This document shows, piece by piece, positions 3,001-57,268 of a stretch of DNA of 64,000 nt; positions within the stretch are counted from its first letter, which is position 1, and each line of letters starts with the position of its first letter. The notes beneath the pieces are model-generated. The model made no database searches. It was not told the origin of the DNA and saw only the letters and a list, made by a program, of their open reading frames with translations. Origin of the DNA: a virus; the IMG/VR virus record IMGVR_UViG_3300029825_000002, positions 23,129 through 87,128 of that record. One strand, 5' to 3'. The translations under genes were made by a program, and so were the position numbers.

Positions 3001-3624
3001 CTAAAAATACCTACTGGTTATGATGTTTTAGCTCCAGAAAATCTTAGAAGGGATGCAGGAAAGAGTAATATAATTCTGGTTAGAAAAGAGACTAAAGAAA
3101 TACAATTAATGTTGGGTAGTGGAGATAATTTAAATGGAATAATTACTTATGGAAATACACTAATAAATCAAAGTGTTACAAAACAGACAGGTAATATAAT
3201 ATATACACATCCATTTTTATATATAACTACTAGTGGTACAGGAACTTGCAAAGATAGCACTTTAAAATATAGGGATGTGTCTTGTAGATTACCTAAACCT
3301 AATAATTCTTATGCAGATTATCAATTATCCGAAGATATTATATCAGCAGAATGTGCAGAAAATTTGGCAGTAATATTAGCTACCTGTTCTTTAAAGAGTA
3401 ATTATAGAAATTTAAATAATATTATATCAAGTGATGGAGCAATTTTAGTTGCACCTGCTCTATCTAAGGTTATAAGTAAACTTGTATTAGGAGTAAGTTT
3501 AGTAGATGTAAATGGTCAACTATTCTTAAAAGTTAGATGTAAATTTGATACTAGCAATAATGTAGATAATAATGGGTCAGAAATAGCAGACTATTATTTA
3601 AATCATAAACCTTTAATAAAATAA
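1..3624 (+). CDS. Tail fibre / receptor-binding virion protein (5' end upstream of window)
   Basis: Frame is open from base 1, before the GTG at 136; long T/G/N/S-rich beta-type protein with a LamG-like segment; lies directly upstream of XkdX, holin and lysin. Confidence 0.65.
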   Translation, partial: GGDGQAIITPIIEDSRVGEETSRRIQLRWRIRVVDGVDFSQLPEGVGAVGSPALNELDIPFGLGGSNLSNSDIASNLDANYRYTHQFHKEIQSSWNVTDPLINDVGLYRAGYTKGYPIENTADGFSYAIPMFKVHRRNSGGYSTNNGNGSITYTKITFTRPTSIEAHGIGQYTVSVSDYTNISVNDIFMMNSIPQWKILSKNDNNTVTVLNLSNGIQGTGTISVVKYTRPDILLADIVDDRDILDLRHQVSLTGFNYQELLEENFDKLLRGELQTKERTKMLKTYHGIPKTPIDANTVFYASLDGTTTAEVGGNPTGGSCSFRTYPTGLGFKDNGSDLYYTLLNGMPSEFTIDYWGFSAICLTKGKCSISNNYDTGIILGSDMCLFKGVVYNTGLILSKNNMYLTHNRYTYKDGIFKAYINGQLRLNISIDLSSYLNTLDTLNLFQYSTKRGTEQRYSDLSVSNIDRGSTFATLPQDFIDGYARISPAFNSQRNVFSDALTTETKQELINVDGTKNKPYIHLGDATDWIKDDSTKWNAGDKVKLDTLTGEIITGVIDADTAIAKIVEVISSNNGDYRYKLNDVSKIVVNDKLTCIDGSYLIITAIDTTTNIITGESHNISEAIYAGLLNYAIGDLLYETTASSSSPLVKFNATGTLQSGGTNTITLPSTYNINDNFYNGFIISIDSGTGAGQVKTITDYVGSTKVATVDSNWTTQPDNTSVITIHNIDVGGTWSGLGTTEAIYTLPATLPSGLTNQSLALTYAMTEMSGQGGIPEVLTQTLAGEYKGDKLIPNPAHHILDDFQGKVAGSVIENPNIGRRTNGNGSQTSLLLPLSHNEAEMELGVNDSGITNIEKLDGSSIGTTTNITNAIPQHLFAFNLIEIVERKYGVIPGSTMADKVTWLKNNLASITCNWWGYGSCPSGNKAELKRFNFLSGTWSTVNISHTLNYSSLLTYSDLSYNLTTATLIDSNGFIYYLAYTDASDGTTPSTIYTDYINIEVTLKIPTGYDVLAPENLRRDAGKSNIILVRKETKEIQLMLGSGDNLNGIITYGNTLINQSVTKQTGNIIYTHPFLYITTSGTGTCKDSTLKYRDVSCRLPKPNNSYADYQLSEDIISAECAENLAVILATCSLKSNYRNLNNIISSDGAILVAPALSKVISKLVLGVSLVDVNGQLFLKVRCKFDTSNNVDNNGSEIADYYLNHKPLIK

Positions 3625-20947: not shown

Positions 20948-20976
20948 TTGACACAAATTTTGAACAATGTTATAAT
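20948..20976 (+). promoter_or_regulatory. SigA-type promoter with extended -10
   Basis: TTGACA-17-TATAAT with TG at -15/-14. Confidence 0.8.
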
Positions 20977-49631: not shown

Positions 49632-50171
49632 AAGAAATGAAAGTATTAGTAGTTGTTATAAAGAGAGTAAAGATACTAATAGTAATAAGAATAATACATA
49701 TAGTTATAATGAATATAGATTTATACACTAAAATACCTGATATACGTTCCCTCAACCCCCTTTACACTTCTCTGTACCTAGGCACACTTTTATTAATTTA
49801 GTTAATTTTTAAGGTAATTAAGGTTAATTTAGGTCAATTGGAAAAAGAATTACCAATTTATTTTACGAGAAATCAACGTCTAGTGTCAATCTCTACAGGG
49901 GTAAAACACTTAATAATTTCCAGTTTTATTTCCAATTCCATAGGTTATCAGGTTATTTTTAATAGGTACAGGCTAGGATTACTCGCCACCCCCTCTCTGA
50001 ACCACGATTAAAGAAACCTTCTTTTCCGATTTTCTAGGAGCTTTTAAGGACTTTATAATATGATAGGAATAACCTGATTAGGAGTTATATTTTAACTAAT
50101 TAAGTGATTCTGCATAACTTATTAAGGATATACTTCAAAATGCTCTTATTTAGGATGAATTTCAACCGTCA

Positions 50172-50515
50172 TTAATAACATATAGGTTACTTTTATACAA
50201 GTTACTTAATAACATATAGGGTATTCTATTTAATTAGGTTATCTATATTGAATAACTATATTAATAAATATAGTTAGGTTTATTGAAATGAACTTTTACT
50301 CTAGGTTACTTTCTCTTTTTTTATTACTTATTACTACTATAAAAAGTAACTCATTAATGATTATTACTATTATATGTTTAGTTATTATTCTTTATTACAT
50401 CTTATATTATATAGTTATAAAAAGTAGCGTCAATCACACTTTTATCCGCTCATTTACCCACTTTTTAGTCAGGTTACTTGTTACTCTATGAGTTGTTTGT
50501 ATTATATAGTTAGGT
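50172..50515. repeat. Iteron-like direct repeats
   Basis: TTAATAACATATAGG at 50172 and 50206; ATATAGTTAGGT at 50268 and 50504; AGGTTAC x3. Confidence 0.7.
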
Positions 50516-50567
50516 CATGATATAATAACCATATTGAATTATAACTTAAAAAAAAGAATAGGGGCGG

Positions 50568-51146
50568 TTGAAAATGAAATTACATTTAAAAAAGAATATT
50601 AAGGATGATAGCTTAGTAGGTATGTTTTATATTATTGATTGTAGCAGGAAAGATAACCCTGATTTTTGGCAATTAAGGACTAGGAAGGAACACTTTGTGT
50701 TGAGTGCTACTGGAGGTAAGGATAAAATACTTGAATGTTTAACTAATATAGTAAAAAAATATAAGTATAAACACGTTATTAATAGATTAGTAACTCAACA
50801 AATAAATGATTATAATCATTTATCAGGTGGTACTAAAAATGTAGATTTAACTCCCGCGGAACGTTTATCATTAAGAGAAAAGCATCAAAAGGAATTAGAC
50901 GCAGAGTATGAAACAAAGGGAAAGCAATATAATCAGGAAATAAACAATATAATTAGAAATATAGAAGGTAATAGAACTAATAACGTTAAACATAGGAAAC
51001 CTCATATAATTGGACTTAAAAAACATACTACTAATAATACTGGAACTATTAATGTAGAATTAAATTTACCTGCATCTAAAATAAATATATTGAAGAAAAA
51101 ACCTATTAAACATAATACTTTTAAGAAACTTAAATTAAAACATTAA
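50568..51146 (+). CDS. Isolated basic hypothetical protein
   Basis: 192-aa ORF between non-coding tracts with its own terminator. Confidence 0.6.
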   Translation: MKMKLHLKKNIKDDSLVGMFYIIDCSRKDNPDFWQLRTRKEHFVLSATGGKDKILECLTNIVKKYKYKHVINRLVTQQINDYNHLSGGTKNVDLTPAERLSLREKHQKELDAEYETKGKQYNQEINNIIRNIEGNRTNNVKHRKPHIIGLKKHTTNNTGTINVELNLPASKINILKKKPIKHNTFKKLKLKH

Positions 51147-51155
51147 TAATTCTCC

Positions 51156-51182
51156 AGGCACCTTTTATTGGGTGTCTTTTTT
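51156..51182 (+). terminator. Intrinsic terminator
   Basis: AGGCACC/GGTGTCT stem plus T run. Confidence 0.75.
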
Positions 51183-51491
51183 CTTGCCATTTTTACTCTA
51201 TGTTATTTAAAAGCGTTTTAAGCTTATTTTAAGCTCATTTAGTATTAAGTCATATATTTATACCTTTTTTCATTTCTAATTGATTTTAGAGCCAATTTGA
51301 CACGCTTATTTATATACTATTCTTTAGTTGTTCAGAGTAACCTATTTTACTAGTCTTCATTAATTTATATGCTTATTTTACTAAGAATATTACTAATTTC
51401 AAAAAAATTTTTTGAAGTTGTAAAGCATTGATACATCTATTGTTAAGTTACTTTGATTATGACCAAATATGACAAAATCAAAAAATTTTTC

Positions 51492-51520
51492 TTGACATAC
51501 TTATACACTTGATGTACTAT
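51492..51520 (+). promoter_or_regulatory. Strong SigA-type promoter with A/T-tract UP element
   Basis: TTGACA-17-TACTAT preceded by AAAAAATTTTTC. Confidence 0.85.
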
Positions 51521-51568
51521 AATAACTGTAAACAAGAAATGCATAAACAAAACAACACAAGTAACACA

Positions 51569-51580
51569 GTTCTTTGACAA
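51569..51580 (+). promoter_or_regulatory. BoxA-like antitermination element
   Basis: GTTCTTTGACAA resembles the Firmicute rRNA-leader boxA GTTCTTTGAAAA. Confidence 0.5.
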
Positions 51581-51589
51581 ATAAATATA

Positions 51590-51890
51590 TGAAAGTAACT
51601 ATATGAAAGCACTATACGCTTATATAATTGTTATGTGATTGACAATTAAGCACTAATTAAAATATAGGTATAAGAAAGTTGGCGGAAATAGGAATACATT
51701 AGTTAGTGTGTTGAGTAAAGTAATAGTTTATAAGTAGTGTATGACTAAGTGAGTACAGAGTGTTTACAATGTAAATACGTGTCAACGGTGAAATATTCTA
51801 ATGACCTAAAGATTTTATTGTAAAGAAAATAAAGTCTGAAGTATAAAAGTAATATAGTTACCAGTAATGTATTTTATATCGTTCCTCCTT
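51590..51890 (+). ncRNA. Putative structured leader RNA (~300 nt) with crossing long-range helices
   Basis: No ORF; perfect 10-bp and 9-bp long-range complements plus three local hairpins (see findings). Confidence 0.55.
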
Positions 51891-51917
51891 TTAGTTTTCA
51901 ATTTTAATTATTTATTG

Positions 51918-51966
51918 ATTATTGTTAGAAGGTATATTAAGTTTTGTGTACCCTCTATAGAGTAAT
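51918..51966 (+). repeat. Intergenic hairpin repeat 1
   Basis: ATTATTGTTAG-[stem-loop]-CTATAGAGTAAT. Confidence 0.8.
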
Positions 51967-51996
51967 TAAAATTTTAAATGAAAGAAGTGTTTTATT

Positions 51997-52230
51997 ATGA
52001 TGTATAAAAAGTTAAAAATAATGATTAATGACTTAGTTGACCAAATTCCAGAAAAACATATTAGATACAGCCTATTTAATAAATCTGAAATTAAACAAGA
52101 GTATATCGACCAGGTTAAAAATAATGATTATGAGTGTATGTTTAATTATTTACATTCTTTAAACATTAATACTAATTCATTGTTAAAACTTATAATCAAA
52201 ACTAGATTAAGAAAAGAAGGTGAAATGTAA
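51997..52230 (+). CDS. Hypothetical early protein
   Basis: ORF after hairpin 1. Confidence 0.55.
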   Translation: MMYKKLKIMINDLVDQIPEKHIRYSLFNKSEIKQEYIDQVKNNDYECMFNYLHSLNINTNSLLKLIIKTRLRKEGEM

Positions 52231-52349
52231 TGGTAAAAGTAATATTTATCAATGGAACTGTAAAAGAATATAATAGAAGATATTTTCAGGATATTATAAT
52301 AAATTATTTCCGCAGGTCCATCTTTACATGGAAATTCATTTAGGTTACA

Positions 52350-52400
52350 TAGTTATTGTTAGAATACATACTCAAATGTATGTATTCAATAGAGTAACTA
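52350..52400 (+). repeat. Intergenic hairpin repeat 2
   Basis: TAGTTATTGTTA-GAATACATAC..GTATGTATTC-AATAGAGTAACTA. Confidence 0.85.
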
Positions 52401-52446
52401 AGTTACTTTAAAATTAAAAATTGATAAACGAAAGGATGATAAAATA

Positions 52447-53253
52447 ATGAAAACTATAAAAAAAGAAGATATGGTAAAGGATATAGTAGCAGGAAGAAAA
52501 AATGCTTGTGAGGAATCAAAAGCTATAATTGATTTTATAGCAACAACTTTTAAGGACAATCCTAGAAATTTAACATTAAAGGAGATACAAGACAATCAAG
52601 CTAGGATATTTACTTTGAATAAACAAGCTAAACTTCCTATTGAAGCTAATAAGAAAAAACTTAAAAAATCAGACAAGAAAAATCCAAAGGATAAAGTAGA
52701 AGAGGTTGCAGAAAAAATAGTTAATATAATAGATGCTAAAAAACCTATTGAAACTAGTACTAAGGTATTAAAGAAAGTGGATAAGAAAGAGGATAAAAAG
52801 GACACTAAAAAACTACATAAGAATAAAGACAACAAAATAACTTTAAAAGTCAAAGAAGTTCCACAAATTTTCCCACCTCACTTTGAGAATAAAGAAATTG
52901 GGAAGTTTCAATTAAGAAGTGATATTAAAAGTATTAAAGATTTATACAAAGAAATAGAAGACGGAAAGGAACTTTATATTTGTACCTATTGGAATAAAAC
53001 AGACCTTAAAAAATATACTTATGACCCATTAAGTATAAATAAAGAGGATATTCCAGAATTTGAACTTGACCTAGATATTATGTCAATTATGTTTTGTAGT
53101 GAAGAAGGTAAGGTTGTTTATGGGGTAAGTTTATATACTGAAGTAAACTCCGCTTTCCTTCCTCATGGTTTTAAAACAGACGAAAAAACAGGTTGTAGAT
53201 ATACAAATGGAATGGAATATCAGGTTTATGAGCTTGTATCAGAAAAAAAGTAG
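52447..53253 (+). CDS. Lys-rich hypothetical early protein
   Basis: AAAGGA SD; its TAG stop forms the first bases of hairpin 3. Confidence 0.7.
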   Translation: MKTIKKEDMVKDIVAGRKNACEESKAIIDFIATTFKDNPRNLTLKEIQDNQARIFTLNKQAKLPIEANKKKLKKSDKKNPKDKVEEVAEKIVNIIDAKKPIETSTKVLKKVDKKEDKKDTKKLHKNKDNKITLKVKEVPQIFPPHFENKEIGKFQLRSDIKSIKDLYKEIEDGKELYICTYWNKTDLKKYTYDPLSINKEDIPEFELDLDIMSIMFCSEEGKVVYGVSLYTEVNSAFLPHGFKTDEKTGCRYTNGMEYQVYELVSEKK

Positions 53254-55622: not shown

Positions 55623-55656
55623 TTATTTTAGTAACCTTGTTACATACCTTTTATAT

Positions 55657-55682
55657 AGCACCTTTTTATAGGTGCTTTTTTT
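55657..55682 (+). terminator. Intrinsic terminator
   Basis: AGCACC/GGTGCT stem plus T run. Confidence 0.75.
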
Positions 55683-55696
55683 ATTGCCTATTACAT

Positions 55697-55746
55697 AAAA
55701 AGAAAACCGTTATATAGTTAACTCTATACAGCGGTTTCTTTTTTTT
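55697..55746. terminator. Bidirectional terminator
   Basis: AAAAAGAAAACCG..CGGTTTCTTTTTTTT. Confidence 0.7.
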
Positions 55747-56977
55747 AAGTTATAGGAGAGACTATTACACTATGTTATTTACAGGCACTTATTATACTAC
55801 TCTTTATATACCTTTATGTCAAACGCCTTTCTATATATGCCTTTCTATTACCCTTCTATATAACACATATACAGGACCTTATATGTAGTACCTTATATAC
55901 ATTTTATATCATGTTATTATATCAATCATATAGCACTATATAAGACACTTATATATGATTACTATATAAGTATACCTATATGTATATAAACAATGTTATA
56001 TCATGCAATATGATTGATATAATAACATATAACTATATAACAACTATATAATACAATATACAATTACAATATAACTAATGTATATAAGAATGTAATAAAC
56101 AAATAACAAACAAAACAATATAATAATAAATATAAAATATAATCATATAATATAATCAATAAAGTAATAACCTATGTTGCTATGTTGGCTATTCATGCAT
56201 GAATAAGAATAGAAAGAGCGGGAATATTCAACTTAAAAGAAAGATGCAAGAACGAAAGATATATAAAAAGAATGTTACTTTTAATTTATGCATTATATAT
56301 ACTATATATCTGAAAAATGAATCATGGTAACTTAATTATGCAAGGATAGTTGCCATGCAAACGGTTCTACAATGACCCCACCCTTAAACAGGGGTAGCAT
56401 GATATAGGCATTGCACCTACTGCCACACAAGTGCGATATAAAAATAAGGTTAGTATGTGTTTTTCTTTTATTAATTTATACTATTATTTAGTTACTGGCA
56501 AACATATGCGGAATATTTTTATAGGTATGCATGGTTTAATTTTCAATAGTGCCATACACTTGGAAAGTAAATTTTAGGTATACATATGTTTTTAATTAGT
56601 GCTTTATATATATATATATATATATGAATGATTTTTTAAGTATAGTAAGAGAAAAATTAATAATTACTTCTGCTACTATTAACTTAAATAAGGTTACTTA
56701 AAAATATTCTGGAGAAAAATAAAACATAAAAACACAGGAGTGTTACTTACTTATAAATTTCGTAGTCGTTTGAAACGTCCACAAATATATTATAAAAAAA
56801 TCATTGAAATTAGCTTAGTTAAATACTAAAACACATAAATATACCTAAAATAACTTAGGATAACTAAAAGTAACCTATATGGTTAAATAAATAACATCTA
56901 AATAACATATCTTTACCCCACTTGTATACTATTCAGAGTTTAATTTAAAAATAATTGAAAAATTTAATAAAAAGTAC

Positions 56978-57027
56978 TTGACAAAACACTACAAATAGTG
57001 TATTTTTTCTATTACCTACATAATATA
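56978..57027 (+). promoter_or_regulatory. Promoter with the 23-nt element duplicated from 7787
   Basis: TTGACA-17-TATTTT then TTTTCTATTACCTACATAATATA. Confidence 0.65.
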
Positions 57028-57188
57028 TAATATATAATATATGCTATATAATATTATTTATTATTATGTGTATAATAGGAACATTTCTTTTAGGACATAA
57101 ATCAAAGATTTATTGTTCACTTCGTTCACGTACTCACTAGCGTTCGTACTTTACATTTAAATAAATGAGTTATTAAATTTTAATTGTT

Positions 57189-57217
57189 TGACCTTAACAC
57201 TTAAACATTTTATAATC
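57189..57217 (+). promoter_or_regulatory. SigA-type promoter
   Basis: TTGACC-17-TATAAT. Confidence 0.7.
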
Positions 57218-57268
57218 TAACCATGCTTTAATTTAATAACGTTTTAATAAAAATAAGGAGGGGAAAGT

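Follow-up and report, generated by a model that had tools for sequence, protein, structure and literature searches.

What is the role of the long untranslated leader that heads an operon of small genes in an uncultivated phage? The leader lies at 51527-51996 of a stretch of 64,000 nucleotides (nt), referred to here as the window, which comprises bases 23129-87128 of the 91,836-bp IMG/VR phage record IMGVR_UViG_3300029825_000002. It follows a predicted promoter and ends at the ATG (51997) of a 77-amino-acid (aa) open reading frame (ORF). In the original prediction, positions 51527-51900 were described as a compact, pseudoknotted RNA of ~300 nt, either acting on RNA polymerase in the manner of the put and EAR elements or processed to a trans-acting non-coding RNA. 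The analysis presented here points elsewhere: on balance, the leader appears to contain an antitermination signal of the type found in ribosomal RNA (rrn) operons, a boxA for the Nus factors NusB-S10, within a long and otherwise loosely structured 5' untranslated region. It is probably not a compact pseudoknotted RNA.

boxA of the phage leaders and of rrn operons

The candidate signal is GUUCUUUGACAA at 51569-51580 (+ strand), a putative NusB-S10 binding site ~43 nt after the predicted transcription start (~51527). GTTCTTTGAMAA has one exact match on both strands of the 64-kb window, at this position, against 0.01 expected; boxA is also single-copy in the 92-kb genome. Judged from its sequence, the boxA of this segment is probably a new member of its class, carried by a phage.

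Relatives of the phage are distant. No close relative was found by blastn among 50,697 phage records, and tblastn of the 268-aa protein encoded downstream of the leader (52447-53253) gave no match among phages. IMG/VR scans with five phage proteins were empty, word-based protein searches retrieved nothing but the phage, and other contigs with the same proteins are 100% identical across the region. An IMG/VR scan for the hairpin that is repeated in the operon gave 13 single matches, about the chance number by a rough estimate, and the three checked lack the phage's DNA polymerase; a 25-mer from the window and the related locus L023 had 0 matches in IMG/VR. An exhaustive HMMER search with the 268-aa protein identified 264 distant homologue clusters (39% identity or less), and the contigs behind ~20 of these formed the comparison set (loci L018, L019 and so on).

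Both genes flanking the leader, encoding proteins of 192 and 268 aa, have homologues of 28-51% identity in ~15 other uncultivated phages; for the 192-aa protein, identity in the relatives' contigs is 28-42%. The relatives, with GC contents of 28-48%, have the same layout. A 192-aa homologue and a terminator come first, next 0.7-1.2 kb of non-coding sequence holding a sigma-A promoter and the long leader, then 0-2 small genes and the 268-aa homologue; the operon is punctuated by hairpins, and its genes are ~85 nt apart. Because this layout is shared, the gap is considered orthologous across the clade. The first downstream gene is not kept in position, and is absent in L024 and L025.

Most of the leader cannot be aligned between relatives. 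In a MAFFT alignment and anchored display of ten leaders, the sole common block is G-(U/A)-(U/A)-C-(U/C)-U-U-G-A-(A/C)-A-A. Across the relatives' loci, 197 kb without redundancy, 15 sites match the pattern G[ACT][ACT]C[CT]TTGANAA, and 15/15 are inside leaders; the pattern was derived from these same leaders, and the independent statistic is its absence outside them, nothing else. Two of the relatives' leaders carry two copies. In relatives, boxA lies ~0-100 nt past the predicted -10 elements, with starts judged by eye. L023 has the closest of the homologous leaders: pairwise blastn finds an 81-nt block around boxA (window 51532-51610) that is 83% identical, while the proteins of the two phages are only ~36-44% identical. 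A small hairpin is found just 5' of boxA in L018, L019, L027, L028 and L036; in L018 and L019 its loop is the same, GUAAAGAA, and the stem shows a change from A-U to G-C.

The conserved block matches boxA of rrn operons. The E. coli boxA consensus is UGCUCUUUAACA, and B. subtilis rrn leaders carry a boxA-like element (consensus AUGAUCUUUGAAA) right after a small 5' hairpin; this element binds NusB (PMC13753749, 2026). When compared with the gamma-proteobacterial consensus GYTCTTTAANA (PMC5725501), the window's GUUCUUUGACA agrees at 10/11 positions; at the remaining one it has G for A, as Firmicutes do. The key nucleotides contacted by NusB-S10 are G2, C5 and U6 (C6 in Aquifex; PMC3177189); every one of the 16 leaders has the contact G, C and U.

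In two Clostridia genomes, the rrn leaders consist of a hairpin followed by AGAACCUUGAAAAAUGAACAG and a hairpin followed by AGAACCUUGACAAGUAAACAG, with ACCUUGAAAACUGCAUAAU in the spacer; GAACCUUGA(A/C)AA follows the hairpin in clostridial rrn leaders. The 16-mer TGTTCTTTGAAAACTA, which we took to be a Firmicutes rrn spacer sequence, was tested on genomes (one per species). Among the matches listed, most are from Bacillota and many are on tiny high-coverage contigs; the 16-mer stands directly upstream of 16S or 23S in 6/8 loci checked with Rfam. The phage variants fall in with these elements. L037 (GAACCUUGACAA) is identical to the Kineothrix rrn leader, and L018, L019, L027, L028 and L036 (GUUCUUUGAAAA) are identical to the Bacilli element. 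L021 (ACCUUGAGAACUGAAUAAC) agrees with the clostridial spacer element at 16/19 positions; the window (UUGACAAAUAAAUA) agrees with Kineothrix (UUGACAAGUAAACA) at 12/14. Bacillaceae rrn leaders have a CA-rich run beside boxA, as do the phage leaders, but on the opposite side of boxA.

Another sequence, GTTCTTTGACAA, was tried as a host clue among 301 Clostridia genomes and discarded: one genome (G103) has 8 copies, but these represent the end of a repeated mobile element and not rrn. In G103 (L180-L182) it is located 35 nt inside the end of the multi-copy element (ACTCAACTTTCCCACACAAATATTGGATGTTCTTTGACAAATTAATAC...), and at least seven contigs break there.

Folding of the leader and rival explanations

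The pairings on which the pseudoknot was based are present. Helix H1 is formed by GTAACTATAT (51595-51604) and its perfect complement ATATAGTTAC (51852-51861), both on the + strand, with an ensemble pairing probability of 0.95; H2 is formed by AATACATTA (51693-51701) and its perfect complement TAATGTATT (51865-51873). The two helices cross and have adjacent 3' strands, and the remaining pairings and three hairpins (51625-48, 51760-78 and 51810-37) also exist. The original prediction had cautioned that short complements arise by chance in AT-rich DNA, and both shuffled and natural sequences bear this out. Of 1000 dinucleotide shuffles, 18.7% contain a perfect complement of at least 10 nt and 14.7% contain two of at least 9 nt; for 1830 natural segments of 374 nt taken from this genome the figures are 25% and 24%, and 12% have a crossing pair.

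Folding of the segment is no better than that of shuffled sequence. Its minimum free energy is -63.1 kcal/mol against -63.3 +/- 4.4 kcal/mol for dinucleotide shuffles (z = 0.04); z is 0.00 for the minus strand and 0.06 for the leader body. The hairpins at 51760-78 and 51810-37 alone are mildly unusual (z = -2.8; 1/200 shuffles as stable). A sliding scan finds a single strong structure, at 51900-51979 (z ~ -4.3), just beyond the segment. The whole window has no Rfam match at the gathering threshold, and 51100-52100 gives only noise at E<=10; no leader match was found in Rfam, EAR-type families included.

Homologues do not preserve the fold either. Applied to ten homologous 5' leaders, RNAalifold predicts 0 consensus pairs, with no conserved pairing around or after boxA. 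In the best pairwise alignment with L023, a poor alignment of two sequences at 45% identity overall, H1 keeps 7/10 pairs (two substitutions as G-U), while H2 keeps 2/9, H3 0/7, H4 0/8 and H5 2/7; the three hairpins keep 1/7, 3/8 (51760-78) and 5/10 (51810-37). The RNAalifold structure of this pair (-5.5 kcal/mol) does not include H1 and pairs the 3' strand with another upstream segment. Leader bodies are stabler than shuffles in L018 (z = -5.1), L037 (z = -2.8) and L030 (z = -2.5), but not in the window, L028, L036, L032 or L038. The ~300-nt body is not a family feature, because the length of leader after boxA varies from 117 to 755 nt; in L027, L036 and L032 it is 117-161 nt, which makes the body dispensable.

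Given these results, a put/EAR-like or trans-acting pseudoknotted RNA is very unlikely. Cleavage at the terminal hairpin could free a discrete leader fragment, and some relatives do have stable leader bodies; however, stability at the level of shuffles, the missing consensus pairs and the loss in L023 of every helix but H1 do not support the pseudoknot. H1 itself is a possible long-range helix, unproven and at chance level by shuffles. The other extreme, an ordinary spacer or decayed gene in which the motif was kept by chance or by recent exchange, would fit a leader that is mostly unalignable and whose gene-like purine skew could be a coding relic. This is extremely unlikely. The 470 nt up to ATG 51997 contain no credible ORF under codes 11, 4, TAG=Q and TAA=Q, as had been noted earlier for the region between promoter and first gene; the lone ORF (32 aa, at 51867) has no Shine-Dalgarno sequence. 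The decayed-gene idea was rejected for want of a codon-usage signal, and each frame has 9-19 stops. Neutral spacer is contradicted because the motif is conserved, and confined to leaders at 15 loci, while the flanking proteins are so diverged that neutral non-coding sequence should be randomised.

Two further explanations accept the motif and dispute its role. A functional boxA might serve not for antitermination in cis but as a NusB-S10 decoy against rrn, or for repression of downstream genes as documented for Nus/boxA at E. coli suhB (PMC5725501). The same motif evidence applies, and the near-consensus promoter with its upstream A/T tract is in keeping with a decoy; this role is nevertheless unlikely, as repression of the suhB type needs boxA near the start codon, and here 417 nt separate boxA from the first ATG; a decoy leaves unexplained why boxA always heads one and the same syntenic operon. 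Alternatively, the motif could act as DNA, either as the -35 element of another promoter placed in tandem (compare T7 A1-A3) or as a CodY operator (box AATTTTCWGAAAATT). Four + strand TTGACA sequences within 51297-51644, against 18 genome-wide, speak for the former, and the copy at 51574 is followed after 17 nt by AACTAT, which retains A2 and T6 of a -10 element; for the latter, AATTCTTTGAAAAAT is a putative CodY box in C. difficile (PMC12772354). In the relatives, however, no conserved -10 is present 16-18 nt downstream, most have TTGAAA, and the conserved flank (G..C upstream, AA downstream) exceeds a -35 hexamer. The clostridial-type variants GCACCTTGACAACGG and GTACCTTGAAAACCG lose the CodY dyad, the window site departs from the 15-nt CodY consensus at 5 positions, and every variant coincides with known rrn boxA variants. 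A DNA-level role is thus quite unlikely.

The antitermination role that had been suggested for the leader is plausible in cis because the leader holds an rrn-type boxA; the folded-RNA mechanism of put and EAR is not supported. Antitermination by boxA would proceed as follows. The host-type promoter at 51492-51520 would transcribe the leader (51527-51996) of an early-type operon, and the nascent RNA would display boxA ~43 nt from its 5' end, where host NusB-S10 could bind. By analogy with rrn and lambda nut, NusB-S10 would, with NusA and NusG, nucleate a Nus-factor complex on RNA polymerase, with which elongation would withstand Rho and perhaps also termination or pausing at hairpins. Modified in this way, the polymerase could get through the ~430 nt that are not translated and past the five large hairpins between genes. 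What remains of the leader would be variable spacer with some local hairpins, perhaps helix H1, and no conserved compact fold, ending in the first repeated hairpin (51918-51970).

Several points weigh against this reading. Nus-factor binding and read-through are putative, as is the function of the hairpins, and all are argued by analogy; transcription of the segment and its start site are predicted from the promoter sequence. No intrinsic terminators are predicted inside the operon, and the target of antitermination (Rho?) is conjecture. In Firmicutes, NusB-boxA binding alone has been shown, and rrn antitermination has not been demonstrated functionally (PMC13753749). In the equilibrium fold, boxA is predicted to be no more accessible than the leader average. 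The window and L023 have no obvious boxB-like hairpin directly upstream of boxA. Finally, the second TTGACA (51574) lies within the window's boxA, so that a DNA-level role is conceivable for the window phage alone.

Leader components and operon setting

The phage genome was assembled out of fermentation metagenomes and has a GC content of 25-31%; nearly all long ORFs are on the + strand. The nearest cultured match of its DNA polymerase is that of Bacillus phage BCD7 (35% identity). The leader sits in an 850-nt gap (51147-51996) separating the 192-aa gene (50568-51146) from the 77-aa gene. An intrinsic terminator with an 8-bp stem and T run (51156-51188, + strand) closes the transcript of the 192-aa gene; it is the sole terminator-like site predicted in 50000-53000.

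The leader promoter (51492-51520, + strand) is TTGACA-17-TACTAT, of the host sigma-A/sigma-70 type, with an upstream A/T tract. Its layout, TTGACA-N17-TAxxxT, is common to seven other promoters of the genome. It had been called the strongest promoter, a rank that does not hold: besides it, the genome has at least seven TTGACA-N17-TATxxT promoters, one of which, at 20948, fits the consensus perfectly. GC and AT skews change at the promoter from -0.13/-0.21 upstream, as in untranscribed spacers, to gene-like values of +0.25/+0.12 in the leader; transcription from this promoter is supported because strand composition becomes gene-type exactly there. One of the four clustered TTGACA copies (350 nt) is the promoter -35, one is in boxA, and neither the copy at 51297 nor that at 51639 has a good -10; a tandem-promoter reading of the extra boxes was rejected, their -10 elements being poor and not conserved. 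An A/T-tract palindrome, CAAAAAAATTTTTTG, is located at 51395-51419, ~85-100 nt upstream of the promoter, and recurs as TTTTTTAAAAAATTTT in several relatives, in L018 and L019 ~95-100 nt upstream of the -35. It may be an UP-like or bending element.

The leader begins with an A/C-rich, G-poor and poorly structured stretch (GUAAACAAGAAAUGCAUAAACAAAACAACACAAG...; 51527-51568, + strand; windows z = +1 to +1.9), which can be aligned with L023; similar GUAAAC(C)AA/CA-rich starts are found in L018, L019, L029 and L030. Directly 3' of boxA are two tandem UAUAUGAAAG(U/C)A units (51583-51612, + strand). L023 has three xAUGAAAG units at the matching place (3094-3140), and the bases before each unit complement the 3' strand of H1. 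The local hairpins at 51760-78 and 51810-37 (51760-51837, + strand) have pair probabilities >0.9. The loop of the second, GUAAAGAA (51820-51827), also caps the hairpin just 5' of boxA in L018 (~1323) and L019 (~1562); the stem beneath it changes from AACGU/ACGUU in the window to GCGU/ACGC in L018/L019.

Directly before the terminal hairpin is an anti-Shine-Dalgarno-like pyrimidine tract, UCCUCCUUUUA (51883-51893, + strand), which contains the single TCCTCCT of the 92-kb genome; L023 and L021 have comparable tracts, CCGCUUUUA and CCUCUUUAG. On the minus strand the tract reads as a strong Shine-Dalgarno sequence (AAAAGGAGGAA), yet no ATG, GTG or TTG follows it.

The leader closes with a hairpin (51918-51970, + strand; core AUUGUUAGA ... 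AUAGAGU) which is the first of five copies; the others are at 52350, 53251, 53826 and 54262, one before each next gene. The five copies fold with z = -4.4 to -6.8, and the pattern has 6 matches against 0.72 expected. The core is conserved and the inner stem variable, while the outer stem covaries between copies. By analogy with the T7 early region, the hairpin probably serves RNA processing or stability. Apart from this repeat, no paralogue of the leader was found inside the genome.

The operon runs from 51997 to ~55622 and is bounded by the terminator at 51156 and a similar one at 55658 (55658-55688). Its first ORF (51997-52230, + strand; 77 aa) belongs to no known family. The 268-aa protein, another member, has no Pfam or PHROG match although it has 264 metagenome homologue clusters; its C-terminal domain is conserved (YWxKRxLKQ, F.NDLDL, S.Y), and the homologue is always syntenic with the 192-aa homologue across the leader.

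A second, larger non-coding gap follows at 55623-57268; no boxA was found in it. It contains tandem terminator hairpins (55658-80 and 55702-45) and an inverted repeat with 33-nt arms (55911-43/55996-56028; 91% complementary; fold z = -5.6). The repeat is embedded in a dense array of CTATATAA/CTTATATA words, followed by a (TA)n run and then a promoter at 56978. Its make-up suggests a candidate origin of replication or regulatory hub.

Comparison with known systems and significance

The closest parallel is with the boxA elements of rrn leaders and spacers (E. coli rrnTAC; B. subtilis), which share with the phage the 12-nt sequence, including the contact nucleotides, and a position no more than ~100 nt into a long untranslated transcript. 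The context is also similar, with an A/C-rich 5' end and large downstream hairpins that recall rrn processing stems. As in several relatives, a small hairpin precedes boxA in rrn leaders; rrn operons have a second boxA in the 16S-23S spacer, and two relatives' leaders have a second copy. In contrast to rrn, the phage transcript encodes small phage proteins rather than rRNA, NusB-S10 binding and antitermination are putative, and no clear boxB-like hairpin is seen in the window or L023.

In lambda, nutL and nutR likewise place a boxA near the 5' end of early transcripts, recruiting host NusB-S10 (putative in the phage). Lambda antitermination requires, in addition, a boxB hairpin 3' of boxA and the N protein. 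The phage leaders have no conserved hairpin 3' of boxA, and the 77-aa product has neither an arginine-rich motif nor a family match, the search for N-like proteins being confined to this product. Unlike lambda, the phage has a boxA of the Firmicutes type (UUUGA, not UUUAA); its host is taken to be a low-GC Firmicute.

The T7 early region reportedly has promoters A1-A3, a non-coding leader of ~390 nt and RNase III sites R0.3-R1.3 separating the early genes. The phage resembles it in its host-polymerase promoter, its long non-coding leader closing in the first of five intercistronic hairpins, and its short early genes. It differs in that T7 is not known to have a boxA, hairpin cleavage is putative here, and the extra TTGACA boxes lack a convincing -10. 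HK022 put and Bacillus EAR/LoaP resemble the phage leader as cis-acting elements proposed for processive antitermination. They work through defined folded RNA domains, whereas boxA is a short single-stranded protein-binding site with a different mechanism; the phage leader matches nothing in Rfam, its folding is neither significant nor conserved, and its conserved element is a linear protein-binding motif.

Antitermination by boxA and Nus factors is textbook knowledge for E. coli rrn operons and lambdoid phages. For Firmicutes, the NusB-boxA interaction was first shown in 2026 (PMC13753749). Among the open-access papers searched, an incomplete set, none described boxA in leaders of non-lambdoid or Gram-positive phages, which does not prove novelty. 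As this case shows, a fold cannot be argued from short perfect complements when a leader is AT-rich.

A bolder proposal is rather unlikely: that a whole clade of uncultivated Firmicutes phages carries, ahead of a conserved early operon, the exact rrn boxA variant of its host, hijacks antitermination without a lambda-N-like factor and uses the leader additionally as a NusB-S10 sponge. If the sponge is real, H1 and the terminal hairpin might close a stable released leader fragment, starving host rrn operons; if the hijacking is real, the boxA variant would also be a host-range marker.

The conservation of a host-type boxA alone in a fast-evolving phage leader is independent evolutionary evidence that boxA functions in Firmicutes. 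With its promoter, boxA, long untranslated RNA and hairpins, the leader is a compact natural test system. Because the variants in the phages agree with those in rrn operons from different Firmicutes classes, boxA may also help to assign hosts to uncultivated phages.

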